This document shows, one piece after another, positions 2,841 to 62,504 of a DNA stretch of 64,000 nucleotides (the first letter of the stretch is position 1; each line of letters opens with the position of its first letter). Both the position numbers and the translations under genes were made by a program. This DNA is from an uncultured delta proteobacterium (GTDB taxonomy: Bacteria > Desulfobacterota > Binatia > Binatales > Binataceae): the NCBI GenBank assembly GCA_963842085.1, contig CAWJET010000001.1, positions 2,811,103 to 2,875,102 on the forward strand, written 5' to 3'. The notes beneath the pieces were generated by a model. That model was not told where the DNA came from. It saw only the letters and a list, made by a program, of their open reading frames with translations, and searched no databases.

Positions 2841-2966
2841 CGCAAGTCGGCTCCTTGACGCGCGGCATTCTTTTCTTTTGCCCGTCTTTCGCAAACCATA
2901 ACGCAACATGACGCACATTCGCCAAGCCTCTCAACCTCTGACAGGCGTGAATGGTCAGTATTGACT

Positions 2967-2983
2967 TAACCGTGGCACGGTTA
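2967..2983. promoter_or_regulatory. 17-bp perfect palindrome TAACCGTGGCACGGTTA next to a TTGACT hexamer, candidate operator upstream of the HTH gene
   Basis: The palindrome is read directly from the sequence, 95 bp upstream of the 3077 ATG. A second 14-bp palindrome CTCCCCGCGGGGAG (3052-3065) overlaps the GGAGG ribosome-binding site. Confidence 0.3.
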
Positions 2984-3076
2984 GAGGCTGAATATTGGGC
3001 TTTTGTGCGACATCGAGCGATACGGCTCGTTTAAGGGGGAACCGGTAAAATCTCCCCGCGGGGAGGTTGGACTACA

Positions 3077-3322
3077 ATGGCGTCCTCAATGGCATCCTCG
3101 GAAGAAATCCTCACCATCTCGGAGTTGTCGGAGCATCTGCGCGTCCATCCGACTACGATTTACCGGTTGCTCCGCGAAGGACGAATACCCGGCTTCCGCG
3201 TCGGCAGCGCGTGGCGATTCAGCCGTGCGGCGATCGAAATATGGGAGCACGGGCAAATCGATCCAATCGACGAAGATTCCGCGCGCACGCGCAAAGCCAA
3301 AGGCCGCAAGCCTCGCAAGTAG
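3077..3322 (+). CDS. Excisionase-family/MerR-type helix-turn-helix DNA-binding protein (HTH_17)
   Basis: An 81-aa protein with the motif ILTISELSEHLRVHPTTIYRLLREGRIPGFRVGSAWRF, typical of Xis/AlpA-like HTH, and a basic tail. Confidence 0.7.
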   Translation: MASSMASSEEILTISELSEHLRVHPTTIYRLLREGRIPGFRVGSAWRFSRAAIEIWEHGQIDPIDEDSARTRKAKGRKPRK

Positions 3323-3369
3323 CCCGCGCAGTATTCACGGCGCGCTTGTTTTTCTGTCATTCTCGACAG

Positions 3370-4185
3370 GTGGACTCCAACGAAGGCGAGCCCGCGCGGC
3401 ATCGCCCACATTCACAAATAGCAGCGTACTTCGTCCGTTTAGCCGACACTTACGGTGACGGCGCATACTACGGAAATCGGCGGCGCGCAGTGCTCGAGTC
3501 GATCGCGGGCGAAGTGGCGCAGGCGCGCGACGTGCTCGACGTCGGATGCGGCAACGGCGCGTATCTCGCGAACTTTGCGCAGGTGCCTGGAAATCGCCGG
3601 GTGACCGGCGCCGACATGTCAATCGACATGCTGTTGTCAGCGCGCAATCGGGTCGGTGCGAAATGCCGCCTGCTCCGCGCGGACGCGTCGCGACTGCCGT
3701 TCAAGCCGGAGTCGTTCGATTTGGTCTTCGCGAGCCACGTGCTTCAGTTCGTTGCCGATACCGATCTCGATGGCGTCGTGGCGGAGATCGCGCGATGCCT
3801 GCAGCATCCCGGGGTGCTAATCGCGACCGGGCAGCGTGACGACAGCGTTCGGCAGATGCTGAGCGCGATCGTCGGGCCGGAGCGCTGGCGCGAATATCGC
3901 GAGGTAATCTTCCGGCGCGCGCCGCGCCGCGAAGCCGATGCGCGTCCCAAGGATCGCTACCAGCAGGCGTTCGCCAAGGCCGGTCTGCGCGTCGAGGAAC
4001 GTGCCGCGCGGTTTACGGTCACGTGGCCGGATATCGCAGAGTGGATCCGGCTCAGATGGATCGCACTGATCCCCGACGCCGAGCGTGATCGGGCCGATGC
4101 GATGCTGGTGGAACTCGCGAAGGCGGGTGCGCCGCGGAGTTTGACCCTGCACGAGCCGCTGATCCTCGGCCGGCGGGATAGCTGA
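3370..4185 (+). CDS. Class I SAM-dependent methyltransferase (start codon uncertain, GTG at 3370 proposed)
   Basis: Motif I VLDVGCGNGAYL and the downstream methyltransferase fold motifs are present. The upstream part of the ORF-track frame overlaps the HTH gene in another frame and is Arg-rich, so it was trimmed. Confidence 0.65.
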   Translation: MDSNEGEPARHRPHSQIAAYFVRLADTYGDGAYYGNRRRAVLESIAGEVAQARDVLDVGCGNGAYLANFAQVPGNRRVTGADMSIDMLLSARNRVGAKCRLLRADASRLPFKPESFDLVFASHVLQFVADTDLDGVVAEIARCLQHPGVLIATGQRDDSVRQMLSAIVGPERWREYREVIFRRAPRREADARPKDRYQQAFAKAGLRVEERAARFTVTWPDIAEWIRLRWIALIPDAERDRADAMLVELAKAGAPRSLTLHEPLILGRRDS

Positions 4186-19080: not shown

Positions 19081-19599
19081 ATGAACCGGATATTGCTTGT
19101 ACTTGCCCTGTCGACGGTCCTTTTTGGCGGGGCCGTGATCGCGCTGTCGGAGCGGCCATGGGCGCCGCGCGCTGACGTAGTCCAGCCGATCCCGTTCAGC
19201 CATCGGATACACGCCGGGGAGAACAAGATTCCCTGTCAGTACTGTCATGCCGACGCCAGCCGCTCGTCCGAACCGGGGATTCCGGCGGTTAGAAGGTGCG
19301 TGGGATGCCATGGCGACCGCCTTGTGGGCGGCGGCGGAATCGAGCCGGTGACGCGGCCGTGGACGGACGACACGCCGGCGGCGTTCGAGATTCAGTGGAA
19401 TCGCGTTTACACACTGCCCGATTTCGTGCGGTTTACCCATCGGCCGCATATTCACGCCAAGGTGCAATGCCAGACTTGTCACGGCCCGGTGCAAACGATG
19501 GATCGGGTGGTGCCGGCGTTTGAAATCAACATGGGCTTCTGCGTGGACTGTCACACGAAAAAGAAAGCGACGCTCGACTGTGTGGACTGTCATCACTGA
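19081..19599 (+). CDS. actA: Alternative complex III subunit ActA (pentaheme cytochrome c)
   Basis: A signal/anchor helix and five CxxCH motifs (CQYCH, CVGCH, CQTCH, CVDCH, CVDCHH). Confidence 0.8.
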   Translation: MNRILLVLALSTVLFGGAVIALSERPWAPRADVVQPIPFSHRIHAGENKIPCQYCHADASRSSEPGIPAVRRCVGCHGDRLVGGGGIEPVTRPWTDDTPAAFEIQWNRVYTLPDFVRFTHRPHIHAKVQCQTCHGPVQTMDRVVPAFEINMGFCVDCHTKKKATLDCVDCHH

Positions 19600-24403: not shown

Positions 24404-25624
24404 ATGAGCACTAATCTTCAACCGGCGCATCGCGAGCGCGCAGAGACGAAGCCGCGGCCGGTGGAGTCGGTGGCCGGCGCGACAATGCAGACAGTCGCGG
24501 CCGCGATGATCGCGCTGGGTGCGATCGCGTTTGCGTTGGCGCTGACGCGGGGCGGCGCCGCTGTCGCATGGGAAGCCTATCTCGTCAACTTGCTGTTCTT
24601 CCTCGGCGTCGCGCAGGGTGCGCTGGTCGCATCCGCGGCGTTCTACCTGACGCAGGCGAAGTGGGGCGGTTCGACGCCGTATCGGCTCGGCGAGGCGTTC
24701 GCGCCATTTCTGTGGGTCGGATTTTTTCTGTTTTTTGGATTGTACTTCGGCCGCAGCCTGATTTTTCCGTGGGTGACGCATCCGATTCCGCAGAAGGCCG
24801 CGTGGCTGAACACTCCGTTTCTCTTCGCGCGCGATGGAATCGGGCTCGGCGCCATGGCTGCGGCGAGCTTCGCGTTTGTCCGCGTCTCGCGTGGCGATGA
24901 CGCACGGGCGTGGACGACTGCGACCGCCGACATCGAGTTGCCGCCGCATTCGATACGGGTGCTCGCTCCGCTGGTCGCGGTCCTGTTCGCGGTGGTCTAC
25001 TCGCTGATCGCATTCGATCTGGTCATGTCGCTCGCGCCGGTGTGGCGCAGCACACTTTTCGGCTGGTACTTTTTCGCCGGCGCATTCTGGAGCGGATTGA
25101 CCGCGATGGCTCTCACAGCGGTCGTGTTGCGCGGCCGCCTGGGCGAGAACAACCTGTTCACCAATCCCGTCGTCATGCACGACTTCGGCAAGATGGTCTT
25201 CGCGTTCTCCGTGTTCTGGATATACCTGATGTTCGCGCAGTACATCGTGATCTGGTACGGCGACATCCCGGTCGAAACTTTCTTCATCGTTCAGCGGGTA
25301 CATCATATGCCGTGGTCGCCGCTATCGGTGGCGTGCCTGGTGCTGATCTGGCTGATTCCGTTTACCGTGCTGATGAGCGTGCGGGCCAAGAAGGCGCCGG
25401 CGATTCTCGGCACAGTGGCCGGGCTGGGGCTGGTCGGGATGTGGCTCGAGCGTTACGTGCTGGTGGTGCCGTCGCTGTCGCTCGACGCGATCCCGTTTGG
25501 GCCGACGCAATTTCTGATCACGCTTGGTTTTTTGGGCGCATTTCTCATTTCGGCAGTGCCGGGACTGAACCGCGTCGCGCAGGCCGCGACCTCGGGCGAA
25601 CCCGTCGGAGATGATCCGGAATGA
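24404..25624 (+). CDS. actF: Alternative complex III subunit ActF (second NrfD-like membrane subunit)
   Basis: A 406-aa polytopic protein paralogous in architecture to ActC. No monoheme ActE gene lies between actD and actF. Confidence 0.7.
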   Translation: MSTNLQPAHRERAETKPRPVESVAGATMQTVAAAMIALGAIAFALALTRGGAAVAWEAYLVNLLFFLGVAQGALVASAAFYLTQAKWGGSTPYRLGEAFAPFLWVGFFLFFGLYFGRSLIFPWVTHPIPQKAAWLNTPFLFARDGIGLGAMAAASFAFVRVSRGDDARAWTTATADIELPPHSIRVLAPLVAVLFAVVYSLIAFDLVMSLAPVWRSTLFGWYFFAGAFWSGLTAMALTAVVLRGRLGENNLFTNPVVMHDFGKMVFAFSVFWIYLMFAQYIVIWYGDIPVETFFIVQRVHHMPWSPLSVACLVLIWLIPFTVLMSVRAKKAPAILGTVAGLGLVGMWLERYVLVVPSLSLDAIPFGPTQFLITLGFLGAFLISAVPGLNRVAQAATSGEPVGDDPE

Positions 25625-26649
25625 TCCGGCGCGGTTCAAACAAGTATTCGATCGCCTCAGTAGCTATGCGAGTGGCTATTGCACTGACTATTGCGGGATG
25701 CTCGGCGACGGACCGTCCGATGACAACGCTGGCGCCGAAATCGGACCTGGCGCAGTGGATTCACAGTCTCTTCATAGATGTGACGATCTGGGACGGGATC
25801 ATCCTGGCGATCGTGGTCGCCGCATTCATCCTCGCGGTGTTCGTCTTTTCTTCTCGCGTAGGCGAAGCGGCGCCACCCTCGACCGCGTCGTCCGACCTCG
25901 GCCTGGAAATAGCGTGGACGGTGGGCCCCGCGCTGGTGTTGTTGATGATCTCGGTGCCGACGATACGGACGATCTTTCGCTCGCAGCCGGCGGTTGCGCC
26001 TGCTGGAGCGCTGGAGATCAAAGTAGTCGCGCATCAATGGTGGTGGGAGTTCGACTATCCGGACGGCGTGAAGACCGGTAACGAACTGCATATCGCCGTC
26101 AACCGGCCGATTCGCCTGTCACTGGAATCGGCCGACATCATCCACAGCTTCTGGGTGCCGCAACTGGGCGGCAAACGCGACGTGGTGCCGGGCCAAATCA
26201 ATGAGCTGACATTCGTCGCGACGGTAACCGGAATGTATCCGGGGCAATGTGCCGAGTTTTGCGGCCTGTCGCATGCGAACATGCGCTTTCGAGTGTTCGT
26301 CGATTCGCCGGAAGGGTTCGCGATGTGGGACAAGGCGCAACTTGCCGGCCCGGTCGCGCCACCGGCGAGCGATCAGTTGGCGTCGGACGGCGCGAAGATT
26401 TTCGCCGACAGTCCGTGCACGACCTGCCACATGATCAAGGGCGTCTCGAAGGGATATATCGGCCCTGACCTGACGCATTTCGGCAGCCGCACAACGCTGG
26501 CCGCCGGAGTGCTGAAGAACACGCCCGAGAACGTCGCCCAGTGGATCCAGGATCCGCAGGAAATCAAGCCGGGCGCGAATATGCCGGCGCTGCTGTTGCC
26601 AGGGCCAAAGATGAACGCCCTGGTCGCGTATCTCGAGAGTCTCAAATAG
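25621..26649 (+). CDS. coxB: Cytochrome c oxidase subunit II fused to a C-terminal cytochrome c domain (caa3-type)
   Basis: A CuA site (HSFWVPQLGGKRD, CAEFCGLSHANM) and a C-terminal CTTCH heme c motif are present. The ATG overlaps the actF stop. Confidence 0.9.
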   Translation: MIRRGSNKYSIASVAMRVAIALTIAGCSATDRPMTTLAPKSDLAQWIHSLFIDVTIWDGIILAIVVAAFILAVFVFSSRVGEAAPPSTASSDLGLEIAWTVGPALVLLMISVPTIRTIFRSQPAVAPAGALEIKVVAHQWWWEFDYPDGVKTGNELHIAVNRPIRLSLESADIIHSFWVPQLGGKRDVVPGQINELTFVATVTGMYPGQCAEFCGLSHANMRFRVFVDSPEGFAMWDKAQLAGPVAPPASDQLASDGAKIFADSPCTTCHMIKGVSKGYIGPDLTHFGSRTTLAAGVLKNTPENVAQWIQDPQEIKPGANMPALLLPGPKMNALVAYLESLK

Positions 26650-34909: not shown

Positions 34910-35021
34910 AGACGCTTTGTTTAGTCGAACGCCTTTGGCAAGGAAACGGGCGAGCGTGAGAGCGTTGGACCATTGAGATTTGCCGATGACGATTGCGCGA
35001 TGCGCGTGTTACAATCACTTG

Positions 35022-36008
35022 ATGGCCGCGACGTCAGAATCAGTCTCCAGTCCGCCCTTCGATGCGACGCTTGCGCGTCACGGGATTCGCGGGCTCACCC
35101 GCAAATCGCCCACGACCATCCAGGTAAACGTCGGCAAGTTGTGCAACCAGGCGTGCCATCATTGCCACGTCGACGCGGGCCCGCGGCGGACCGAACGGAT
35201 GACGCGAGCGACGGCGGAGCGCGTGCTCGAAGTGCTCGCGGCAAGTCCGCGGATCGAGGCGCTCGATATCACCGGCGGTGCGCCGGAGCTGAACCCGAAC
35301 TTTGCGATGCTGGTTGAGCGGGCGCGCGCGCTCGGCCGCAGGGTGATCGTTCGATGCAATCTGACGGTGACGCAGGAACCCGGGATGGAATGGCTGGTGG
35401 AATTCTACCGGCGCTCGGGCGTTGAGCTGGTTTGTTCGCTCCCGTGCTACACGGCCGCGAACACTGATCGTCAGCGCGGCGCGGGAGTGTTCGACAAAAG
35501 CATCGCGGCGTTGCGGCAACTGAATAGCGCAGGATTCGGGCGCGGCGAGCTGCGGCTGGATCTCGTGTACAACCCGATTGGAGCGTCGCTGCCGCCGCCG
35601 CAGGCGGAGCTCGAGGCGCAGTATCGCGACGAACTCGGGCGCAATTTCGGGATCATGTTCGATCGCCTGCTGACGATCACGAACATGCCGATCGCGCGCT
35701 TCGCCAACCAGTTGAGCGCCACCGGCAGCCATTCGGCGTACATGAGCCTGCTGGTGAATCACTTCAACCGGGCGACCGTGGACGCTCTGATGTGCCGCGA
35801 CCTGGTGAGCGTCGGATGGAACGGGCGGCTCTACGACTGCGACTTCAACCAGATGCTGGAAATCCCGCTCGGCGCCAGCGCCGCACAGACAATCTGGGAC
35901 ATCGACGACATCGGCGGACTCGCCGGCGCGCGCATCGCGACCGGCTCGCATTGCTTCGGATGCACCGCGGGCGCCGGCTCGAGCTGCGGCGGCGCGATCG
36001 CCATGTGA
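35022..36008 (+). CDS. Radical SAM/Cys-rich domain protein (ArsS-like, TIGR04167-type)
   Basis: A CNQACHHCHV radical-SAM cluster motif near the N-terminus and a C-terminal Cys-rich tail (GSHCFGCTAGAGSSCGGA). Confidence 0.75.
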   Translation: MAATSESVSSPPFDATLARHGIRGLTRKSPTTIQVNVGKLCNQACHHCHVDAGPRRTERMTRATAERVLEVLAASPRIEALDITGGAPELNPNFAMLVERARALGRRVIVRCNLTVTQEPGMEWLVEFYRRSGVELVCSLPCYTAANTDRQRGAGVFDKSIAALRQLNSAGFGRGELRLDLVYNPIGASLPPPQAELEAQYRDELGRNFGIMFDRLLTITNMPIARFANQLSATGSHSAYMSLLVNHFNRATVDALMCRDLVSVGWNGRLYDCDFNQMLEIPLGASAAQTIWDIDDIGGLAGARIATGSHCFGCTAGAGSSCGGAIAM

Positions 36009-51982: not shown

Positions 51983-54900
51983 CTACTCCCGCGGCGAACG
52001 AGCTTCGGTGCGGCCGCTGCCGCGCGTGCCCATCAGGTAGATTCCACCCGCGAGCGGGCTCGAAAGAATCATCGCGAACGCCAGTCCGCCGATCACGGCG
52101 ATTGCCAGCGGTTGCTGAACCTTGGCGCCCGCACCGTAGCCGAGCGCGAGCGGTAACAGCCCCGCCGCCGTGGCGAGCGTGGTCATGATGATCGGGCGCA
52201 GCCGCACCGTCGCCGCCTCGAATAGCGCCGCGCCCGGTCGTACGCCCGCGCCGACTTCGCGCTCGGCATGGTCGAGCAGCAGGATGCCGTTCTTGGCGGT
52301 GATTCCCGCGACCATGATGATGCCCATGAACGATGAGATGTTGAGCGTCATGCCGGTCACGGCGAGCGCGATGAAACTGCCCGCGAGACACGACATCGCG
52401 GCCACCAGGCATGCAACCGCGGGCGCGAGCCGCGCGAACTCCCAGACCAGGATCAGGAACATCATGATCGTACCCGCCACCAGCACCAGCGCGAGCTCGT
52501 GAAAGGCCCGCTGCTGCTGCGCGTAAAGCCCGCCGTATTCGAGCGACACGCCGGCCGCCAGCGGCATCCGCGACAGGCTCTGCTTGACCTGGCTGACGGC
52601 AGTGCCGAGGTCGATACCCTCCAGCCGCGCCGTGACGTGCACGACGGACCGCTGGCGCTCGCGCGCGATCTCGCTGGTCTCGCCGAGAAAGTCGATCTTC
52701 GTGACCGCCGACAGCGGCACACGCGCATTCGTGCTCGACTTGAGAATCACTTCCGACAGAGTCCCGAGATCTTCGTGGAATGCGTCCGGGTATCGCACCC
52801 GCACGCCGACCAGCCGATCGCCCGACAGGACGTTGGTGGCGACCGTCCCTTGAATCACCGAATCGAGCGCGGTGCGGATGTCATCGGCGCTCAGTCCGTA
52901 GTGCGCGGCCGAAGTGTTGTCGACGACGACCGCCTGCTCCGGGATGCTCTCGACGATTCCGTCGAACACGTCCACCAGGCCGTGAATCGAGCGCATCCGA
53001 TCAGCCACTTGCCGCGCCGTCGCCTCGATCGTCTTCTGGTCGGGGCCGAAGACCTTGACCTCGATCGGCTCCGGCACGCCTGAAAGATCGCCGATCAGGT
53101 CCTGCAACACCTGCGAGAACTCGATCGATACTCCCGGCACCGAGCTCAGGATGCGTTCGCGGATGGAATCGATGACCGTATCGATGTCGCGTTTGCGGTC
53201 CGGTTTCAGCCGCACGGACATGTCTCCGCGATTCGATTCGGTCAGAAAAAATCCAAGCTGCGTGCCGGTGCGGCGGCTGAACGCAACGACTTCGGGCGTC
53301 GTTTTCAGAATCGACTGAATCGAGTCGAGCAACGCAGTCGTGTCGGCCATCGTGCTCTGCGGCGGCGTTAGGTAGTCGAGGACAAACGCGCCTTCGTCGA
53401 GCGGCGGCAGATAGTCGGTGCCGATACTGTTGTAAACGAAGTACGCGACCAACATCGAAACCGCAGCACCAAGGATTGCCAGCGCGGGAATCCGGATGAT
53501 CGGCCGGATCGCAGTCAGAAACAGCGTCTGCACGCCGCGATAGATTCGTCCCGCCGCGCGCGCGCGCCCGCGAAACCGCGCCATCGCAAGTTCTATCGCG
53601 GGCGTGAAGTAGATGGCGAGTATCAGCGAAATCGCCAGTCCTCCGCCCAGCGTCGCCGCCAGTGAGCGGAAGAAAACGCCGGTCACACCCGAAATAAAAA
53701 CCAGCGGCCCGAATACGACGATCACCGTCATGGTCGCGGCGAACAGCGGGCGCCGGAGACGCTTGAGCGCTTCGGCCACTGCCGTACCAGCGGATTGACC
53801 CGACGCGAGTTCGCGATGAATCGCTTCGATCATTACGATCGCGTCGTCGATGAAAAGTCCGATTCCGGCCGCCAGCCCGCCCAGCGTCATCATGTTGAAG
53901 GTCAGTCCCGCGGCTTTCATCACGATGAATGTGATCGCAACCGTGCACGGCACCACCGTCGCCGCAACCAGCGCGCTGAGCGGACTCATCGTGAACACCA
54001 GCACCACCAGCACCGCCAGCGCGAGGCCGAGCAGGATCGCGTCGCGCACGCTGTTGAACGATTCGCTGACCAGTTCCGACTGATCGTACGAAACCGAAAA
54101 CTGAACGTCGGGATAACGCTGGCGAAACTCCGCGAGGATCTGCCGCGCCTCGGCCGCGATCGTCACCGTATTGCCGCTCGGCCGCCGCGAGATTCCGACC
54201 AGCACCGCCGCGCCGTTCTCGGACGCGGCCCTGATGTAGTCTTCGCGGATTCCCAATTCGACCGAACCCACGTCGCTGACGCGCACCGGTTGACCGCCAA
54301 TAGCCGACAGCGGCACCGCGGCAATCTGGCCGGCCTGGTGCAGATCGCTGGTCACCACCGTCAGCAGCATCCGGTGCGATTCGTTCATCCGGCCCGCCGA
54401 CGCGATGACGTTATTGTGCGCCAGGCCCGCGACGACCTGGGCCGGCGACATGTCATGCTGCAGCATCCGCGCCGGATCGAGCCGCACCACGAATTCGCGG
54501 TACTTGCCGCCGATTACGCCGACCCGGTAGGTGCCCTCGATGCGATGCAGGCTCGGAACGAGATCGTAGTTCGCGATGTCGGTCAGTTCGGGCAGGCTGC
54601 GAATCTTCGAGCTCAGGCTGAGATCGACGATCGGAAAGGTGCCGGTCGTCAGCAACAGCGCGTCGAGCGTCGTATCGTTCGGGAGCTGCGCGCGCGTATG
54701 CGCGACTGCGGCGTTCAGCATCTGGTAGCTGGTTTGTGGGTCGGCGTCTTCGCCGAACGTAACGTCTATCTCGGCGCTGCCGCGGGTCGTCGTCGATCGA
54801 ACCAGTTCCACACCGGGCACGGTGTATGCGCTTTCCTCCAGCGGCCGCGTTACCGACGCGAGCATCTGTTCCGCCGGCAGATCGCCGCTGTCGGCGAGAA

Positions 54901-55024
54901 TCGTCGCGCGGCGAAACGTCATCTCGGGAAATACCGCGCTCGGAATCGTTCGCGCCAGGATGACCCCGAGCACGCTCGCTGCCAGCACCGACAGCACCGC
55001 CAGCGTCGAGCTGCTGCGCGTCAT
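51983..55024 (-). CDS. RND efflux transporter permease (AcrB/CzcA/CusA superfamily)
   Basis: At 1013 aa it has the 12-TM RND architecture with two large periplasmic loops. Its start overlaps the MFP gene stop. Confidence 0.9.
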   Translation of the reverse strand: MTRSSSTLAVLSVLAASVLGVILARTIPSAVFPEMTFRRATILADSGDLPAEQMLASVTRPLEESAYTVPGVELVRSTTTRGSAEIDVTFGEDADPQTSYQMLNAAVAHTRAQLPNDTTLDALLLTTGTFPIVDLSLSSKIRSLPELTDIANYDLVPSLHRIEGTYRVGVIGGKYREFVVRLDPARMLQHDMSPAQVVAGLAHNNVIASAGRMNESHRMLLTVVTSDLHQAGQIAAVPLSAIGGQPVRVSDVGSVELGIREDYIRAASENGAAVLVGISRRPSGNTVTIAAEARQILAEFRQRYPDVQFSVSYDQSELVSESFNSVRDAILLGLALAVLVVLVFTMSPLSALVAATVVPCTVAITFIVMKAAGLTFNMMTLGGLAAGIGLFIDDAIVMIEAIHRELASGQSAGTAVAEALKRLRRPLFAATMTVIVVFGPLVFISGVTGVFFRSLAATLGGGLAISLILAIYFTPAIELAMARFRGRARAAGRIYRGVQTLFLTAIRPIIRIPALAILGAAVSMLVAYFVYNSIGTDYLPPLDEGAFVLDYLTPPQSTMADTTALLDSIQSILKTTPEVVAFSRRTGTQLGFFLTESNRGDMSVRLKPDRKRDIDTVIDSIRERILSSVPGVSIEFSQVLQDLIGDLSGVPEPIEVKVFGPDQKTIEATARQVADRMRSIHGLVDVFDGIVESIPEQAVVVDNTSAAHYGLSADDIRTALDSVIQGTVATNVLSGDRLVGVRVRYPDAFHEDLGTLSEVILKSSTNARVPLSAVTKIDFLGETSEIARERQRSVVHVTARLEGIDLGTAVSQVKQSLSRMPLAAGVSLEYGGLYAQQQRAFHELALVLVAGTIMMFLILVWEFARLAPAVACLVAAMSCLAGSFIALAVTGMTLNISSFMGIIMVAGITAKNGILLLDHAEREVGAGVRPGAALFEAATVRLRPIIMTTLATAAGLLPLALGYGAGAKVQQPLAIAVIGGLAFAMILSSPLAGGIYLMGTRGSGRTEARSPRE

Positions 55025-56028
55025 TGGTTTCCCTGCGCGACGCGAACGTGCAGGCCGTCGGACAGCGCATACCCGCCCGAAGTCACGACCAGTTCACCCG
55101 CTTTGATGCCGGCAGTCACCTGGACCAGATCGCGCTGGCGAAGTCCGACCGTTATATCCGTGCGATGCGCGCGGCCGTCGGCGCCGACCACAAACACGTG
55201 GTAACGATCCACGCCTTGGTCCTGAAACAGTGCCGGCGCGGGAATCACGATCGCGTCGGGGACGCTCGCGGTCTCGATCCGCACTTCGACTGGAGCGCCT
55301 GCCTCCGCGATACGCTCCGGGCCGGTGAAGTCCGTCCGCACCGACGAGGTCGCGCTCGATGCGTCAAAACTTGGCAGGATCGCCGCGATGCGCGCGGGAA
55401 ACTCAACCCCGGGACGAAACGGCGTCGTCACCGTCGCGGCCATCCCGGGCCTCAACAATGAGAGCTGGTTCACCGGGACCGAGGTATCGACGTAGAGGCT
55501 TGCCGGATCGATTAGATCGACCAGCGTGTCGAGGTCGGCAACCATCTGGCCGCTGGTGACCGGCGGTTGCGAGACGATTCCCGATTCCGGCGCGACCACC
55601 GGTATTCCCGCGCTGTGACTGTAGCGCTTGACGGACGCACTCAGCGCCGGCGCGTCCTGGGGATCGATCCTGCGCGCGACCGCGAGCCCGGCCTCCGCCG
55701 CTTCGATCTCGCGATTGACGACACGCGCGACGATCTGCCCCTTGCGCACGAAATCGCCGCTCGCCAGTTTCAGTCCCGTCACTCGGCCCGCCGTTGGCGC
55801 GCGGATGATCACGTGCCGCGTCGCGACGGTTTTGCCGAGCAGCCGAAGCTCGCTTGTCATCGGATGCACTTCGGCCCTTGCCGCGCTCACCAGCAGGACG
55901 GGCTCGGGCTGCGCCGCGATTTCGCCGCCGCCTTCTTTCGCGCCGCCGCATCCTGCGAGCAGCGCCGTCGCCACTGCCGCCGCGAAGATCGCGATGGCGC
56001 GGCGGTTCGAGCCCGCGCGCCTTATCAT
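55021..56028 (-). CDS. RND efflux periplasmic adaptor (membrane fusion protein, HlyD family)
   Basis: A lipobox/signal (LLAGCGG) followed by biotinyl-lipoyl-like and beta-barrel regions. The start was trimmed to MIRRAG. Confidence 0.8.
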   Translation of the reverse strand: MIRRAGSNRRAIAIFAAAVATALLAGCGGAKEGGGEIAAQPEPVLLVSAARAEVHPMTSELRLLGKTVATRHVIIRAPTAGRVTGLKLASGDFVRKGQIVARVVNREIEAAEAGLAVARRIDPQDAPALSASVKRYSHSAGIPVVAPESGIVSQPPVTSGQMVADLDTLVDLIDPASLYVDTSVPVNQLSLLRPGMAATVTTPFRPGVEFPARIAAILPSFDASSATSSVRTDFTGPERIAEAGAPVEVRIETASVPDAIVIPAPALFQDQGVDRYHVFVVGADGRAHRTDITVGLRQRDLVQVTAGIKAGELVVTSGGYALSDGLHVRVAQGNQ

Positions 56029-57284
56029 TGGATACGGCCGAGGAGCAGGTTCGTCTCCGCCACCGCCTCGCGCGCGTTGAACTCCTGGTCGTGCCGCTGC
56101 AGCCGCAATTGCTCGGCCTGCTGATACGCATCCAGCACTTCGAGCATCGTCACGGCGCCGCCGCCGAGGAAGCGCGTCCACGTCAGCGCGAAGTTATCGT
56201 CCGCGGTTGGCTGCGCGCGCGACAGGATGTCGAGTTGCCGATTCGCCTGGTCGTAACGAATCGACGCGTCCGCGATTCGCCGCTTCAGAATGTACTCGGC
56301 CTGCCGCGCCTGCGCTGTGGCCGAATGCTCTTTCGCCTTCGCCTGGTCGATGTGCGATGAAATCAGTCCGCCGTCGAACAGCGGTACCGACACGACGCCG
56401 TCGTATGAGCCGCCAAAGTTGTGCGAAATCGTCGCCGGCGGATCGATGCCGACAAATCCGGTCGTGAACGCGACCTGGAACGTCGGCAGACGCTCGGCCT
56501 TGGCCGCCTTGATTTGCGATTCTGCCGACGCGATCGCGCGCTGCGCCGCCTGCATTACGGGGCTCTGCGCAAGATCGCCCGACGGCTTCGGCGGAACGCC
56601 GGCGAGGCTCGCGATTTCGAGGTCGGGCTGATTCGGCTCGCCGATCAAAATGCCCAGCGCCGCGGTCGCGCGCTCGCTATTGCCGCGCGCCGCGTCGAGC
56701 GCAATCTCAGTACTGTCGCGCGCGGTGCGGAACTTCAGCACGTCATTGGTGATGACGCGTCCGCTTTTTTCGAGCGCCTCGATCGTAGTTACGTAGCGCG
56801 TCAAGCGTTCCAGGCTGGCCTGCAAATCGTGTTGCGCCCCCCGCGCGCGAAGCACATCGAAGTAGGCGATCGACGTATCGAAAACAATTTGCGCCCGCGC
56901 CGCAGCGACTCCCAGCCGCGAGGCTTCGTTGACGTACTCGGCCGCACGCAGCCGCGCCTGTCGCCGTCCCCAGTCCCACGCCGTGTAGTCGAGCGTCAGC
57001 AGACCGGCCGATAGTCCGCGGTTCGAAATGACCTCATTGTAACCCGGCGCCTGGTAGTACTCCGCGCCCGCCCCGACGGTCGGAAACAGCGGAGCACGCT
57101 GCTCGCGCACGTGTGCGACGCTCATGTCGCTCGCCGCGGCGGCGACGTCCACCGAAGGCGCCAGGTGCAAGGCGCGATCGATCGCGTCAGACAGAGTAAT
57201 GGTCGCGGCGGGCGCCACCGAAGCCCAACTCAAGAGCGCGGCAGCGAGCGCCGCCCTGAAGAGGTTGCGGCTAGTCTGCTCCAT
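56025..57284 (-). CDS. Outer membrane efflux protein (TolC-like OMF)
   Basis: A signal peptide and two TolC-type repeat halves. There is a 4-nt overlap with the MFP gene. Confidence 0.8.
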   Translation of the reverse strand: MEQTSRNLFRAALAAALLSWASVAPAATITLSDAIDRALHLAPSVDVAAAASDMSVAHVREQRAPLFPTVGAGAEYYQAPGYNEVISNRGLSAGLLTLDYTAWDWGRRQARLRAAEYVNEASRLGVAAARAQIVFDTSIAYFDVLRARGAQHDLQASLERLTRYVTTIEALEKSGRVITNDVLKFRTARDSTEIALDAARGNSERATAALGILIGEPNQPDLEIASLAGVPPKPSGDLAQSPVMQAAQRAIASAESQIKAAKAERLPTFQVAFTTGFVGIDPPATISHNFGGSYDGVVSVPLFDGGLISSHIDQAKAKEHSATAQARQAEYILKRRIADASIRYDQANRQLDILSRAQPTADDNFALTWTRFLGGGAVTMLEVLDAYQQAEQLRLQRHDQEFNAREAVAETNLLLGRIQ

Positions 57285-57354
57285 TCGCGAAAGAGTAACA
57301 GTGGTCCGCCGACCGGCCAAATTAATGGACGTTAAGCTGATTAATGAGCGGCGG

Positions 57355-58731
57355 CTATCGCAGCGGGACGGTCGCTCGGTGCGGATCTTCTTTGTGGAGC
57401 GCCAGCGTCACGACGAACGCGGATCCTCCCGTCGGAAGATTCGCGGCGGCGATGTCGCCACCATGCGCCCGCGCAATTTCCCGGCACAGGCTCAAGCCCA
57501 GCCCACTGCCTTCGCCGGGCGACCCTGCGCCGCGAAAAAATCGATCGAAAATGTGCGGCAGCTCAGCTGGATGGATTCCCTCGCCGGTGTCGGCGACGCG
57601 GATAATCGCGCGATTCGCGTCGCTCTTCAGCCCAACCTCGATCGAGCCGCCGGCCGGCGTGAACTTGAGCGCGTTGTCGAGCAGGTTAACGATCAGGCGG
57701 CGCAAGTGCGCCTCGTTGCCATTGACGAAAACGTCCGCGGGCGCATTGACCGTCAGTTTTAGCTCGCGCGCCTGCGCCAGCGGTCCGACCGTCGCGCCTA
57801 TCTCGCTCAACAGTGCGCGAAGATTCAGCTTCTGCCGATCCACCATTACTTCGCCATTGAGCCGCGACAGCATCAGCAGTTCGTCGGCAATCCTGCACAG
57901 CGACAGCGCCTCGCGATGCGCCGCGCCAAGGGCAGCGCGATTTTCCTCGGCCGTGCGATCGCGCGCGAGCGCTACTTCCAGCCCCGTGCGCAGCACCGCC
58001 AGCGGTGTCCGCAGCTCATGCGCCGCATCGGACGCGAACCGGCGCTCCGTAGCCGACGCGCGCTCCAGGCGCTCCAGCAATGCATTGATGACCGCGCTGA
58101 GCCGCGCGACTTCATCAGCCACCGGCGGGACCGTCAGCCGCGAGCTCAGATTGGTCGGCCCGATCGCGTCGAGCTCCGCCGTCACCGATTCGATCGGCCG
58201 TAGCGCCCGGGCCGCCAGCAGGTATCCGCCCCCGACGCAAAGCAGGAGCACGATCGGCACCATCAGCAGTAGCAGGTTGCGCAGGCTGCTCACCGATTCC
58301 TCAACCAGGCCCGCCTGCACTCCGCTTTGCAGGTACGCGAGCTCGCCGTTGTACATCATCGGAACGACCGCGAACCTGAAGGCTTGGTTGCCGACGATCG
58401 CCGGGTGCGTGGGGAGCGAGGGATCGAACGGGGGCGGGATCGTGTGGACAGCGCCGAAGTTCCCCACCTCGCCATGCGCCGTGACGATTCGCACGCGCCG
58501 GCCGGGCCCGATATCGGTCTCTAGGCTCAGCCGCTGCAGGATTCCAATCGCGCTTGACGAGCCGCTGCGCTGGATCTGATCGGCGGTGTTCTCGGCCTCC
58601 TCCAGCAGCGCCGCGTCCAGCGCGCTGAACTGCTGGCGCGCGAAAAGTTTCACCGCGGCGATCGCCGCGACCAGCAAAATCGCCGCCAGCACCGCGGCCC
58701 AGTAAATGGTCAGCCTGAGTCTGATCGTCAT
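57355..58731 (-). CDS. Sensor histidine kinase (HAMP-HisKA-HATPase; CusS/CopS-like)
   Basis: Two TM helices, a phospho-His box HELRTPL and the GLGLSL G2 box. Confidence 0.85.
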   Translation of the reverse strand: MTIRLRLTIYWAAVLAAILLVAAIAAVKLFARQQFSALDAALLEEAENTADQIQRSGSSSAIGILQRLSLETDIGPGRRVRIVTAHGEVGNFGAVHTIPPPFDPSLPTHPAIVGNQAFRFAVVPMMYNGELAYLQSGVQAGLVEESVSSLRNLLLLMVPIVLLLCVGGGYLLAARALRPIESVTAELDAIGPTNLSSRLTVPPVADEVARLSAVINALLERLERASATERRFASDAAHELRTPLAVLRTGLEVALARDRTAEENRAALGAAHREALSLCRIADELLMLSRLNGEVMVDRQKLNLRALLSEIGATVGPLAQARELKLTVNAPADVFVNGNEAHLRRLIVNLLDNALKFTPAGGSIEVGLKSDANRAIIRVADTGEGIHPAELPHIFDRFFRGAGSPGEGSGLGLSLCREIARAHGGDIAAANLPTGGSAFVVTLALHKEDPHRATVPLR

Positions 58732-58759
58732 CGGCGGCCAGCGTGCGGCGGCTGCGGCG

Positions 58760-59440
58760 TCATTCCGCGCGCATCGTGTATCCGACTCCGCGCACGGTGA
58801 CTATCAGCGAGCGATCGGCGCGCGGATCGATCTTCTGCCGCAATCGATTGACGAAAACTTCGATCAGGTTGGTCAGCGCGTTGTAGTTCGAATCCCAGAC
58901 GGTCTCCGCGATCATGTCGCGCGTCACCACCTGTCCGGCGTTTCGCATCAGCAATTCGAGCAGCATCTTTTCCTTCGGCGACAGGTTCAGATTGTGCTCG
59001 CCGATTTTCGCGCGCCGCTTAACGGTGTCGAATTCCAGGTCACCGACCTTGAGAATCGGCGATGCAGGGGTCCGCGGACGCCGCGCCAACGCCTTGATTC
59101 TCGCCACCAGCTCGGCAAACGCGAACGGCTTGACCAGGTAGTCGTCGCCGCCCGTGTCGAGTCCGGCCACGCGTTCCTCCAACGCGCCGCGCGCGGTCAG
59201 GATCAATACCGGCGTCTGATTGCCCGCCGCGCGCATCTCGCGCAGCAGGTCCAGCCCGTTTTTCCCAGGCAACCCCACGTCCAGTACGATTAGATCGAGC
59301 GCGCCGCGCGCGACTATCGGCTCGGCCTCCTCCGCACTCCCTGCCAGTTCGACCGCGAAGCCGTCCTCGACGAGTCCTTGCTTGACCGCGGTGGCCAGCC
59401 GAGTCTCGTCCTCGATCACCAGTATCCGAAGCGCATTCAT
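58760..59440 (-). CDS. OmpR-family response regulator (CusR/CopR-like)
   Basis: A receiver domain (LIVLDVGLPGKNG, conserved Asp/Lys) and a winged-helix output domain (VRGVGYTM). The N-terminal extension was trimmed to MNALRIL. Confidence 0.85.
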   Translation of the reverse strand: MNALRILVIEDETRLATAVKQGLVEDGFAVELAGSAEEAEPIVARGALDLIVLDVGLPGKNGLDLLREMRAAGNQTPVLILTARGALEERVAGLDTGGDDYLVKPFAFAELVARIKALARRPRTPASPILKVGDLEFDTVKRRAKIGEHNLNLSPKEKMLLELLMRNAGQVVTRDMIAETVWDSNYNALTNLIEVFVNRLRQKIDPRADRSLIVTVRGVGYTMRAE

Positions 59441-59493
59441 ACCCCCCGATGCTGGCACGCCGCCGCCTCCAAAAAAAGCGTGCGCCCACCCCG

Positions 59494-60129
59494 TCAGATC
59501 GCCAGCGAGAGTACTCCGGCTGCCACCAGCGCGCCTGCCCAGATTGTGTCCAGGTTGATCCAGGCGCTGCGCAGGATCGCCAGCCCGACCCACTCATAAA
59601 CCAGGATCGCGATTACCCCGGTCACCGCGATCATTGCGCCCGTATGCACCAGCACTACCGCTAATGCCTGCGCGACGGTATGCGCGTGAGCCGCAGTCAT
59701 GTGATGCGCGTGCGGAGAATTCGGCGTCATCCCGATCAATATCGGGAACAGCATCAGGCCCGCGCCATGCGCCGACGCCATCAGGAACGACCACAGCGCG
59801 AGCTCCGCCGCGTTCACCCGCATCGCAACCCAGCGCGGATGCGCGCGCGGCCAGAAAAAGCGGAACAGCCCGAACAGGATCAGCGCGGTCGCGCCGATTG
59901 GGCGAAGAAGATCGATGGCGAAGAACAGCCGCAGTCCGCCGATTATCGCAACGACGGCTGCGATGGACACGAGATGTCCCAGCGCGATTGGACCAAGCGC
60001 CCAAATGACCTTCGAGCGCCGCCGCTCCTGCAGCCCAAGCGCCACCGCGAACAGCCAGCCCATCGACGGATCGACGCCGTGATACGCGCCGAGCGCCGCG
60101 ACCGCGATCCACGGCCAAGCCGGCGTCAC
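59494..60129 (-). CDS. His-rich integral membrane protein (putative metal transporter/chaperone)
   Basis: About six TM helices and a His-rich loop (MTPNSPHAHHMTAAHAHT). A GTG start overlaps the stop of the upstream SBP56 gene (GTGA). Confidence 0.5.
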   Translation of the reverse strand: MTPAWPWIAVAALGAYHGVDPSMGWLFAVALGLQERRRSKVIWALGPIALGHLVSIAAVVAIIGGLRLFFAIDLLRPIGATALILFGLFRFFWPRAHPRWVAMRVNAAELALWSFLMASAHGAGLMLFPILIGMTPNSPHAHHMTAAHAHTVAQALAVVLVHTGAMIAVTGVIAILVYEWVGLAILRSAWINLDTIWAGALVAAGVLSLAI

Positions 60130-61517
60130 GGATAGCAGAACGAGTCGGACGACGAATCGCCGCCCTCGAGGCGAATCTGATGCGCCCGCTCGCCATCGAA
60201 GGTCGTGAAGAAGTTCGGATCGATCGTCATCCCGCCCGCCGGCGCGCAATCGATCTTCGCGACCCAGCCGCGCACACCCTCGGGATAGAACTGCGCGTCC
60301 CACGCCCCGTACAGCGAGTTCGACAGGTAAACGCGCCGCCCGTCGCGGCTCAGCTCGATCATCTGCGACGCGCCGTTGAGCGGCCCGCTCTTCGGATGCT
60401 TGCCGTGCGACACGATTCCGCCCAGCCGCACCGTGCCCGTCAGCTTGGGCTTGAACGGGTCGCTCACGTCGTATTGCTTCAGGTCGCCGGTGCCGAAGCA
60501 CGCGACGTACAGGAACTTGTCGTCGAGACTCAGGTTGATGTCGGTGATAAGCGGCGGCACCGCCTTGAACGGTTTGAGCGCCGGCGGCAACTGGCTCTCG
60601 TCAGCGGGCTCGGCGGGAATTTCGATCACCTTGCGGACTTTCCAGTCGCCGCCGTCGCGATGCCACAGCCAGATCGACGCCGACAAGTCCTTGGTCGAGA
60701 TCACCACGCCGACGAAGCCGTAGGTCTTGGTCGGATCGTGCGATGGGCGCAGCTCGAGCACCAGTTGATGCTCGGCGCCGAGGTCGAGCGCCTTCAGATG
60801 GCGGCGGTTGCGCAGATTCCAGATATGAATCGCATGTCCGTACTTGTTCCCGAGCAGCAGTTCGGGCACCACGCCGTTTTCGATCATGTTCGGCGTGCCC
60901 CATTCGCTGGTGATGGCCACGTCCCAGCCGAGATGCCACCAGAAATCGTAAGCGAACCACTGCGGCCCGCGCTCGACTTCCCATCGCCCGAGCACGTCGA
61001 AGCTTTCGTGGTCGAGCAGGAAAATTCCGCCAGGCCCGTCGCCCTTCGGATTGCCCAGCGCGCTCACGTAAATCGCGTCGGGTCCGCAATGCACCGTATG
61101 CGGCCGGCTGTAGCCCGCGCGCGCCGCGATCTCCTCGGCCTCGATCGTCTTCACCAGCTTCGGCTTGCGCGCGTCGGGCTTGGTGTCGAAAACGTAAATC
61201 CGCGACGAGCGCAGTCCCGGCACCAGCAGGTAGCGCCGCTCTATATGCGGATGCGGCGCATACGGACACAGCGCCGCGCTGCACGCGTTCCAGCCAAAGT
61301 GATGCAGCTCGTCGCCGGCGTTCGGCACTTCGGAGCGCCCGACCACGTGCGAGTAGGTCTTCGATTTCGGGTCGAGATCGAGCACGCACAGCGCGTCATG
61401 CTTGCCGTTGGCGGGCGTCGGGTTGAACGCCACGACGTAGCCGAGCTGCTCGCGCGGCGCCTGCATCGCCATTCGCGCCGAAGGATAAAACGTCTGATCG
61501 GGTTTCCATAGCGCCAT
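60126..61517 (-). CDS. Selenium-binding protein 56 family / methanethiol oxidase homolog
   Basis: Full-length colinearity with SELENBP1 as I recall it: HHFGWNACSAALCP, ITDINLSLDDKFLYVACFGTGDLKQYDVSDPFKPKLTG and a C-terminal GGDSSSDSFCYP. Confidence 0.85.
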   Translation of the reverse strand: MALWKPDQTFYPSARMAMQAPREQLGYVVAFNPTPANGKHDALCVLDLDPKSKTYSHVVGRSEVPNAGDELHHFGWNACSAALCPYAPHPHIERRYLLVPGLRSSRIYVFDTKPDARKPKLVKTIEAEEIAARAGYSRPHTVHCGPDAIYVSALGNPKGDGPGGIFLLDHESFDVLGRWEVERGPQWFAYDFWWHLGWDVAITSEWGTPNMIENGVVPELLLGNKYGHAIHIWNLRNRRHLKALDLGAEHQLVLELRPSHDPTKTYGFVGVVISTKDLSASIWLWHRDGGDWKVRKVIEIPAEPADESQLPPALKPFKAVPPLITDINLSLDDKFLYVACFGTGDLKQYDVSDPFKPKLTGTVRLGGIVSHGKHPKSGPLNGASQMIELSRDGRRVYLSNSLYGAWDAQFYPEGVRGWVAKIDCAPAGGMTIDPNFFTTFDGERAHQIRLEGGDSSSDSFCYP

Positions 61518-61688
61518 GTATTCGCACCGCCTTCCGGATGATGCTTCCGACCGTAGCCAACCCGCCGAGTCTCAGGCAAGCCTTACCACCAACACCGATG
61601 CGCGAAATCGTTGCCCTACGCGCCGTTGCTTGATGTAACATCGCGATGGCGCCGGCACGGCGACTACCCAATCGGGATGCAACGAAAA

Positions 61689-62504
61689 ATGCCGATGGAA
61701 GACAAAACCGTTCTCTACGAGAAGCACGACCGCATTGCCAAAGTCATCCTCAACCGCCCGCGCTACAAGAACGCGCAATCGCGGCGCCTGCTTGAGGAAA
61801 TGGACGCCGCCTTCGCCGAGGCCAACGCCGACGACGACGTCCGCGTCATCATTCTCGCCGGCGCCGGCGACAATTTCTGCTCCGGCCACGACCTCGGGAC
61901 GCCCGAGGAAAAAGAGGATCAGGCGCGCCGCCCGTTTCCCAAGGGCGTGCGCGGCGAGTACGCCCGCTCGCGCCAGATGTTCCTCGACAACACGCTGCGA
62001 TGGCGCGATCTGGACAAGCCCACCATTGCCCAGGTCCAGGGCTTGTGCATCTTCGGCGGCTGGATGTTCGCGGCCGCGATGGATCTCATCGTCGCTTCCG
62101 ACGACGCGAAGTTCCTGCCCGCGCTCCTGCAATACTTCTCCATCCCGTGGGACATTCCGCCGCGCAAGGCCAAGGAAATCCTTTTCCAGAGCCGCTTCGT
62201 CGACGCCGAAGAGGCCGCCCGCCTCGGCTTTGTCAACATGGTGGTGCCGCGCGCCCAACTCGAGGCTGAAACGATGGCGCTCGCGAATCGAATTGCGGAG
62301 AGCGACCGCTTCACGCTCCGCATGGTCAAGTGGGCGGTGAATTCCGCGCAGGACGCGATGGGCTTCAGCACCGCGATTCGTAACGCCCATTCGCATCACA
62401 TGATTCTCGGCATCGGCGGCCTGATTCAGGCCAAAATGCAGGGCAAGGAGCTGCCCAAGCGGATGCCGGGGGTCGAGCAGGCGCTCAAGAAAGTACGGAG
62501 GTAG
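61689..62504 (+). CDS. Enoyl-CoA hydratase/isomerase family protein
   Basis: Crotonase motifs (ILAGAGDNFCSGHDLG; GLCIFGGWMFAAAMDL). The start was trimmed to MPMEDKT. Confidence 0.8.
   Translation: MPMEDKTVLYEKHDRIAKVILNRPRYKNAQSRRLLEEMDAAFAEANADDDVRVIILAGAGDNFCSGHDLGTPEEKEDQARRPFPKGVRGEYARSRQMFLDNTLRWRDLDKPTIAQVQGLCIFGGWMFAAAMDLIVASDDAKFLPALLQYFSIPWDIPPRKAKEILFQSRFVDAEEAARLGFVNMVVPRAQLEAETMALANRIAESDRFTLRMVKWAVNSAQDAMGFSTAIRNAHSHHMILGIGGLIQAKMQGKELPKRMPGVEQALKKVRR

Follow-up and report, generated by a model that had tools for sequence, protein, structure and literature searches.

Proteins of the SBP56 family are found in all domains of life. In humans the family is represented by SELENBP1, a gene linked to halitosis and used as a cancer marker, and in bacteria by enzymes through which methanethiol is removed in the global sulfur cycle. 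An SBP56 gene is also present in a 64,000-nucleotide (nt) stretch of contig CAWJET010000001.1, from an uncultured member of the Binataceae. In this stretch (here called the window), the SBP56 gene is followed by a gene for a six-transmembrane (TM) protein, the start of which overlaps its stop. The locus raises two questions: which type of SBP56 protein is encoded here, and why is a membrane protein encoded with it? We found that the two genes form a near-obligate pair in many bacterial phyla and in some archaea. The SBP56 protein belongs with the S. tokodaii protein of crystal structure 2ECE, in a clade distinct from the characterised methanethiol oxidases, and its membrane partner may be a metal permease that serves it.

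The gene pair and its distribution

The features of the pair, all on the minus strand of the window, are as follows.

60126..61517, minus strand: SBP56-family protein, 463 amino acids (aa), predicted cytoplasmic, 2ECE clade (Pfam PF05694)
59494..60129, minus strand: six-TM membrane protein of an unnamed family, 211 aa, GTG start
60126..60129, minus strand: the sequence GTGA, in which the GTG start of the membrane protein gene overlaps the TGA stop of the SBP56 gene
59680..59715, minus strand: His-rich loop PHAHHMTAAHAH, residues 139-150 of the membrane protein, between TM4 and TM5

The minus strand from 60135 to 60124 reads C TAT CCG TGA CG, and the TGA stop of the SBP56 gene (60128..60126) overlaps the GTG start of the membrane protein gene (60129..60127). 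As the N-termini in the family alignment agree, and a 93%-identical relative has been gene-called with the same 4 nt overlap, we take this GTG to be the true start. A longer open reading frame (ORF) beginning at 60501 was rejected, as it is an out-of-frame read-through of the 3' end of the SBP56 gene. A preliminary description of the window had reported the GTGA overlap and the six-TM protein that follows, and both were confirmed. Its view of the 463 aa protein as an SBP56 homologue colinear with SELENBP1 was equally sound. The match to the Pfam SBP56 profile (PF05694) scored 622 bits (E 7.7e-187; gathering score 34 bits) and runs end to end, with protein residues 5-461 aligned to profile positions 2-453 of 453. 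The protein contains the motifs HHFGWNAC, ITDINLSLDDKFLY and GGDSSSD, and its N-terminus is MALWKPDQTFYPSARMAMQAPREQ. It appears to be cytoplasmic and to lack a signal peptide; in a crude test, a hydrophobic run of at least 10 residues within the first 40 was found in none of 86 SBP56 sequences.

Close relatives of the membrane protein are annotated as 'hypothetical proteins' in Candidatus Binatus and the Binataceae, so that the window would most likely be assigned to Binatota. When it was used to query Pfam, no match was returned even at E<=10, and the models of known metal permeases (NicO/NiCoT, HupE/UreJ, ZIP, GDT1 and others) gave none; NCBIfam also returned none. For 56 diverse relatives, the Pfam search yielded only scattered noise, such as GDT1 in two of the 56 at E 0.02. 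The family is large, with 7,665 matches in a database clustered at 90% identity, and 2,162 clusters at 50% identity and E<=1e-3, of which 908 were matched at E<=1e-10. None of the source records inspected gives it a name, and the RefSeq label is 'hypothetical protein' throughout. A literature search found neither a member of the family nor its pairing with SBP56. Both appear to be undescribed, and so large an unannotated membrane family merits a name and a model.

The simplest explanation for the arrangement in the window would be that it is incidental, with a common membrane protein gene happening to follow SBP56 in this one genome; the only point in its favour is that the membrane protein gene has no annotation. 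GTDB species genomes were searched with the membrane protein alignment alone. At least 600 stretches matched, and 598 of the 600 listed encode a relative. The best 80 of these, which encode proteins sharing 44-58% identity with the window membrane protein, were analysed further, and an SBP56 gene lies directly upstream on the same strand in all 80. The loci come from at least 12 bacterial phyla, and the lineages represented include Chloroflexota, Poribacteria, Acidobacteriota, Actinomycetota, Pseudomonadota, Myxococcota, Verrucomicrobiota, Gemmatimonadota, Dormibacterota, Entotheonellaceae, Rubricoccaceae and Candidatus Aquilonibacter. The median intergenic gap is 5 nt and the genes overlap in 29 of 79 pairs, with the 4 nt overlap seen in the window shared by Binatia relatives. 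Across the 80 loci, the pair has no further conserved neighbour; response regulators, kinases and resistance-nodulation-division (RND) pumps are each nearby in only 2-3 of them.

The same association was seen in a plasmid collection, in which SBP56 genes of three groups are represented (group A, which includes the window gene, and groups B and C; see below). The partner is directly downstream of SBP56 in 53 of 55 group A records, and is not found anywhere in the 22 records with a group B or C gene. Viewed from the membrane protein gene, which is present in 58 plasmid records, 53 copies adjoin an intact SBP56 gene, two adjoin an SBP56 remnant (Agrobacterium larrymoorei) and three are truncated (Variovorax). 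The Variovorax matches without SBP56 were set aside, as they are truncated remnants beside an aadA resistance gene insertion. Among Archaea, the partner follows SBP56 in a Thaumarchaeota genome (E 1.8e-32) and in Pyrobaculum (E 4.6e-25), with its histidines intact.

Pairwise identities of the SBP56 protein and its partner are correlated across 76 genomes (r=0.70, compared with a maximum of 0.06 in 500 permutations). With mean identities of 49% for the membrane protein and 66% for SBP56, the membrane protein evolves faster. The correlated identities show that the two genes are inherited as a unit, and alone are no proof of physical contact between their products. Incidental adjacency, to which we assign almost no chance of being correct, is already refuted by the co-occurrence of the genes in the 80 genomes, the plasmid records and the archaeal loci. 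The frequent gene overlap and the correlated divergence of the two proteins also count against it, as does the plasmid collection, in which the membrane family practically never occurs without SBP56 beside it. The preliminary description had suggested that the membrane protein is a partner of SBP56, an idea to be abandoned should it turn out to be a common unrelated neighbour without co-conservation, and counts of 80/80 and 53/55 decide clearly for a real, co-conserved partner. We consider it very probable that the two genes are functionally coupled.

Some family members were set aside. Two apparent fusions of SBP56 and the membrane protein, P0235 and P0209, were rejected as frameshift artefacts, as segments translated in frame and out of frame follow one another along each sequence. 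Together with P0150, they are examples of chimeric entries in the 50%-identity library, produced by frameshifts in error-prone assemblies, that mimic fusions or C-terminal extensions, and such family representatives call for caution when domain architectures are mined. The longer family members include no informative additional domains, and two further 211 aa ORFs in locus L084 are not paralogues of the membrane protein. In Variovorax paradoxus (L091, 3530..6501), an unannotated copy of the membrane protein gene that encodes only residues 1-132 lies between a DUF899 gene and aadA. Upstream of it is a short coding sequence labelled 'PQQ-binding-like beta-propeller', possibly a fragment of SBP56, and the locus resembles a decayed pair.

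Clade and putative copper site of the SBP56 protein

Three groups of SBP56 sequences were distinguished by sequence identity, C-terminal motif and gene neighbourhood. The window protein represents group A, and matches the S. tokodaii crystal structure (PDB 2ECE) over residues 4-463 with 653 bits. Bacterial members of the group share 53-73% identity with it, and have the C-terminal motif GGD[AS]SSDS[FY]CYP. Group B, found in haloarchaea, Rubrobacter, Paracoccus and Phaeobacter inhibens, is 36-45% identical to the window protein, and the two members inspected (from P. inhibens and Haloterrigena) end in GDC[ST]SD[IV]W. Human SELENBP1 and RdMTO have this same ending, according to the primers used for their mutagenesis and to the text of PMC13603461. 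A human SELENBP1 sequence that was not taken from a database shares 53% identity with the protein of P. inhibens, compared with only 38% for the window protein and 27% for the MtoX type. Group C is the periplasmic MtoX type, and shares 26-30% identity with the window protein.

The preliminary description had called the window protein a homologue of MtoX. In the sense of an orthologue this could not be upheld, as the window protein scores 115.5 bits against the NCBIfam MtoX equivalog (NF052453), for which the cut-off is 650, and appears cytoplasmic. The MtoX proteins of Hyphomicrobium sp. VS and Ruegeria pomeroyi have a signal peptide and are periplasmic (PMC5739008), whereas the window protein has no signal peptide; the two types share the HH motif, the first His of HxxH, the Asp and the Glu. 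Searches for the genes that accompany mtoX were also negative. The best tblastn match of an SCO protein in the 64 kb window was at E 0.059, and no SCO1 homologue was detected there. A scan of window ORFs of at least 150 aa for CxxCH found no MauG-like di-haem candidate near the pair; the motif is present only in ORFs at 19081..19599, 25621..26649 and 34980..36008, all more than 23 kb away. SCO1/SenC and MauG are likewise not among the conserved neighbours in the 80 loci.

SELENBP1, RdMTO and the window protein are all colinear, full-length SBP56 proteins that lack a signal peptide and retain the six residues needed for activity. However, SELENBP1 and RdMTO belong to a different clade, with the human sequence used here approximately 38% identical to the window protein, and the SELENBP1-like genes in the sampled bacteria and archaea have no membrane partner, unlike those of group A. 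On these comparisons, the window protein is neither an MtoX orthologue nor of the SELENBP1/RdMTO type.

The S. tokodaii 'hypothetical selenium-binding protein', which is known as a structure only, is of the same clade as the window protein and has the same C-terminal motif; it was crystallised without copper or any other metal (PMC5739008), and no function has been assigned to it. In an earlier study, S. tokodaii, Acidobacteria and Ascomycota formed an atypical basal SBP56 cluster, with gene context outside the scope of that study (PMC10277263). Our literature search found no biochemical work on the 2ECE clade.

Mutation of H73, H74, H137, H140, D189 or E252 abolishes the copper-dependent activity of SELENBP1 (PMC10362175), and the same six residues are conserved in RdMTO (PMC13603461). 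Mapped by motif and not via a fetched human sequence, the corresponding residues in the window protein are H72, H73, H140, H143, D191 and E255. All six are invariant in the 81 partnered SBP56 homologues. The position of Cys466 in SELENBP1 and Cys448 in RdMTO, within GGDCSSDIW, is occupied by Ser455 in the window protein and by Ser or Ala in 79 of the 81 partnered proteins; published C-to-S mutants at this cysteine retain part of the activity. A different cysteine, Cys461 in FCYP, is three residues from the C-terminus and is invariant in all 81. As the six SELENBP1 activity residues are conserved, it is reasonable to infer that proteins of the 2ECE clade are putative copper-dependent thiol (methanethiol) oxidases. 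Since the window protein is outside the characterised SELENBP1/RdMTO clade, methanethiol oxidation is predicted for it from the conserved residues only.

Many soil bacteria (Acidobacteriota, Actinomycetota, Chloroflexota, rhizobia, Azospirillum and Binatota) carry group A genes, as do thermophilic archaea. Metagenome pipelines routinely label them 'methanethiol oxidase' by transfer from other clades, and sulfur cycling of the mtoX type should not be read into them.

Conserved residues and possible role of the membrane partner

The membrane protein family is recognised by the motifs HGx[ND]PxMGW in TM1 (H17, M23), GH in TM2 (H52) and WSFLMAxAHGAGLMxxP in TM4 (H121, M126), by H162 in TM5, and by a gene that directly follows an SBP56 gene of the 2ECE clade. 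Its conserved core also includes loop 3-4, where H97 is part of an RHPRW motif, and D194, W190 and W197 around TM6. All of the family motifs are present in the window protein. H17, H52, H97, H121, H162, M23, M126, W190 and W197 are invariant in 76 genomic sequences, and D194 is found in 75 of them, with conservation at positions 20-28 in this set biased by the search pattern that retrieved the loci. In 56 cluster representatives, the five histidines and two methionines are invariant or at least 90% conserved. The conserved core includes no cysteines and no positive charges. An AlphaFold2 model built from a diverse alignment has six TM helices (pLDDT 91.2, pTM 0.87), with breaks in TM1 at residues 20-24 and in TM4 at residues 121-124, both of which coincide with the HG motifs. 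Judged by where they fall in the modelled helices, each of the four TM histidines would lie about halfway along its own helix. An internal repeat of 3+3 TM helices was considered and rejected, as hhalign gave a probability of 0.5% for the N-terminal half against the C-terminal half.

Lysine and arginine average 2.3, 3.9 and 2.0 per loop in loops 1-2, 3-4 and 5-6, respectively, and 0.04 in the N-terminus, 0.5 in loop 2-3 and 0.38 in loop 4-5. Loops 1-2, 3-4 and 5-6 are predicted to be cytoplasmic, and the N-terminus and loops 2-3 and 4-5 periplasmic; loop 4-5 is predicted to face outward because it is poor in lysine and arginine (the positive-inside rule). This is the loop that is His-rich in the window protein, and it was singled out in the preliminary description. 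The His-rich sequence is indeed present, but is not a conserved trait of the family, in which the conserved histidines are the five found elsewhere. Across the family, the TM4-TM5 loop is 1-30 residues long and contains 0-6 histidines, with none at all in several members. As the loop is so variable, it is not a defining feature.

The exceptions to the pairing bear on the role of the partner. Two Streptomyces plasmids carry the only group A SBP56 genes without the usual partner, and in these the slot downstream of SBP56 (L087, 5489..6340; L092, 5475..6257) is occupied by a different multi-TM protein, in which the motifs HRFLEG and HAASEG are found. Its two copies share 59% identity, and the one in L092 is split into two ORFs. 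The similarity of this protein to ZIP is weak, at 18.8 bits where Pfam requires 35.1, as is that to ZupT (E 1.8e-3), and no PDB match was returned. Its sequence gives a weak hint that the usual partner has been replaced by another metal permease.

In Sulfolobus acidocaldarius (L093, 5370..5924) and Metallosphaera sedula (L094, 5352..5906), the slot holds a 184 aa membrane ORF that overlaps the 3' end of the SBP56 gene by approximately 32-38 nt. The membrane family profile does not detect this ORF. When it was compared with the family using hhalign, a probability of 49% was obtained over TM1-TM3, with P 1.7e-4 compared with 0.18 for a reversed control. The histidine in the cytoplasmic loop is kept, and H17, H52, H121 and H162 are all replaced. 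The ORF may be a diverged homologue of the partner. Upstream of the pair in M. sedula, a gene at 2870..3631 on the minus strand of L094, opposite to that of the pair, encodes a 253 aa protein with a weak match to Copper-bind (PF00127, cupredoxin).

An MtoX-type gene in Skermanella has an SCO-family gene in the downstream slot. The mtoX gene is known to be followed by SCO1/senC and mauG in an operon-like arrangement, with SCO thought to supply metal (PMC5739008). The pair resembles that arrangement in that a gene for an SBP56-fold enzyme precedes a putative metal-supply gene. It differs in that a polytopic membrane protein takes the place of the thioredoxin-fold chaperone, and in the absence of SCO1 and MauG. 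The presence of an SCO-family gene in the same slot beside MtoX fits the idea of an alternative metal-delivery partner.

As the mid-membrane histidines and methionines are invariant, the outward loop is often His-rich, and SCO occupies the corresponding slot beside MtoX, we tentatively favour a role for the membrane protein as a transition-metal permease. Its dedicated task would be to load SBP56 with a metal, probably copper. The narrower claim, that it founds a new family of copper importers that serve solely to metallate a cytoplasmic copper enzyme, is more doubtful.

The two genes constitute a self-contained, translationally coupled module. The first encodes a seven-bladed beta-propeller, predicted to be cytoplasmic, with a complete His4/Asp/Glu site; SELENBP1 needs this site to convert methanethiol and other small alkyl thiols, in a copper-dependent reaction, into H2S, H2O2 and an aldehyde. 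The second encodes a six-helix protein, predicted to lie in the inner membrane, with four histidines and two methionines placed mid-membrane on TM1, TM2, TM4 and TM5. On our proposal, a metal ion from the periplasm would enter this protein, cross the membrane by way of the His/Met site and be handed to newly made SBP56 in the cytoplasm, with the often His-rich loop 4-5 facing outward and the invariant H97 in a cytoplasmic loop. The partner would then be a cytoplasmic counterpart of the SCO1 chaperone that accompanies periplasmic MtoX.

Free copper is kept vanishingly low in the prokaryotic cytoplasm. Accessory metal permeases encoded with metalloenzymes include HupE/UreJ and NiCoT/NhlF for nickel and cobalt, and CcoA, which provides copper for cbb3 oxidase. 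Like the protein proposed here, these are small and polytopic, have intramembrane histidines (and methionines) and are tied to one metalloenzyme; however, they have no detectable sequence or fold relationship to the partner. The permease proposed here would serve a copper enzyme of the cytoplasm, and such enzymes are unusual in prokaryotes. Accessory genes that belong to a single metalloenzyme are a known arrangement, and what is novel is the accessory itself; the enzyme is a new member of a known superfamily.

Several points weigh against a copper permease. The convergence of the histidines on one site is deduced only from their positions along the modelled helices, and histidines and methionines would suit nickel, cobalt or zinc as well as copper. 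The His-rich loop is absent from many family members, and the ZIP-like similarity of the Streptomyces protein is far below family thresholds. If the 184 aa ORF of the Sulfolobales is homologous to the partner, the four-histidine site would be dispensable in that lineage. The literature searched includes no assay of a 2ECE clade member, and the crystals of 2ECE itself contained no copper (PMC5739008).

The conserved histidines could also be accommodated by a redox or anchoring subunit, in which they would hold an intramembrane cofactor, either a metal centre or haem. SBP56 would be docked at the membrane and pass electrons from thiols to the quinone pool, and would act as a dehydrogenase that does not release H2O2 into the cytoplasm. 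The idea rests on a weak resemblance to the six-TM subunits of Rnf/Nqr (RnfA, RnfE and NqrE); a Foldseek comparison of the model with solved structures gave no convincing relative, with nothing at E<0.1. We consider this explanation unlikely.

If the partner is instead a copper importer dedicated to SBP56, proteins of the 2ECE clade would be widespread cytoplasmic cuproenzymes of bacteria and archaea with their own supply line, although copper enzymes are usually held to be excluded from that compartment in prokaryotes. The near-obligate partner would offer a handle on the loading of a copper-dependent enzyme in the prokaryotic cytoplasm. As the pair is present in hosts for which genetic tools are available (cultured rhizobia, Azospirillum and Deinococcus), the proposal is directly testable. 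Among the more than 130 genomes with the pair, carriers include Sinorhizobium fredii NGR234 (pNGR234b), Azospirillum brasilense, Rhizobium leguminosarum, Ensifer adhaerens, Deinococcus ficus and Phaeobacter piscinae.

Genes surrounding the pair

The pair is flanked in the window by a divergent gene on one side and by a regulator-pump block on the other.

61611..62504, plus strand: enoyl-CoA hydratase, divergent (Pfam ECH_1)
51983..59440, minus strand: regulator-pump block, context outside the conserved module
58760..59440, minus strand: OmpR-type response regulator
57355..58731, minus strand: sensor kinase
56025..57320, minus strand: TolC-like protein
55021..56181, minus strand: adaptor (as listed)
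51983..55024, minus strand: RND permease

The preliminary description had suggested that the pair is regulated alongside an adjacent copper-efflux system, and this finds no support. Among Binatia relatives, those at 93% and 85% identity have the regulator/RND block beside the pair and those at 73% lack it, and a two-component/RND block is near the pair in only approximately 3 of the 80 other genomes. Among solved structures, the RND permease is closest to ZneA (Zn/Cd-type; 325 bits), with 262 bits for CusA and 262 bits for the multidrug pump MdtB, and all heavy-metal subfamily models scored below their cut-offs when applied to the block. By sequence, the pump appears ZneA/CzcA-like and is not clearly a copper pump. 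When 58600..61800 was scanned for promoters and terminators, no signal exceeded that expected from shuffled sequence, and none was seen between the pair and the regulator.

With an efflux system adjoining the pair in the window, it might be supposed that the membrane protein itself exports, or forms a channel for, a substance that SBP56 produces or binds, such as sulfide, sulfane sulfur or persulfide, a selenium species, or metal in excess. Small six-TM proteins encoded beside enzymes are often exporters, and RdMTO-type enzymes are reported to yield sulfane sulfur, which is membrane-impermeant (PMC10936201). However, the efflux neighbourhood is not conserved, and the conserved core of the membrane protein lacks the cysteines or positive charges expected of carriers for sulfur or selenium anions. 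Moreover, H2S, formaldehyde and H2O2 cross membranes freely, and the unpartnered SBP56 gene of P. inhibens adjoins rhodanese and metallo-beta-lactamase (MBL)-fold genes and not a homologue of the partner. An exporter is, in our view, quite improbable.

The neighbours of the group B SBP56 gene in P. inhibens are 2Fe-2S, rhodanese and MBL-fold genes, and the partner is not represented among them. On pP30_b (L088, 3140..9317), a divergent IclR gene is followed by genes for SBP56, 2Fe-2S, CoA-binding and rhodanese proteins and an MBL-fold hydrolase, and the cluster continues with enoyl-CoA hydratase and acyl-CoA synthetase genes. We speculate that this cluster could link the release of thiols from thioether-acyl-CoA to thiol oxidation and persulfide handling.

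The enoyl-CoA hydratase gene in the window adjoins the pair in all four Binatia loci and in none of the 80 other genomes, and it alone persists beside the pair in the 73%-identity Binatia relatives. A DmdD-like role, in which this enzyme would release methanethiol, was considered and rejected, as its closest solved relatives are generic mycobacterial enoyl-CoA hydratases and it is unlinked to the pair outside Binatia.

In the pump block, the adaptor ORF as listed overlaps the ORF for the TolC-like protein by approximately 157 nt. The adaptor in relatives (L083, 14115..15122) is called at 335 aa, with a 4 nt overlap, and the true start in the window is probably downstream of the listed GTG. Elsewhere in the window, the ORF at 19081..19599 on the plus strand encodes 172 aa, of which the N-terminus resembles a signal peptide, and contains CxxCH five times (CQYCH, CVGCH, CQTCH, CVDCH and CVDCH). 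It looks like a small multihaem cytochrome c, unrelated to the SBP56 pair.

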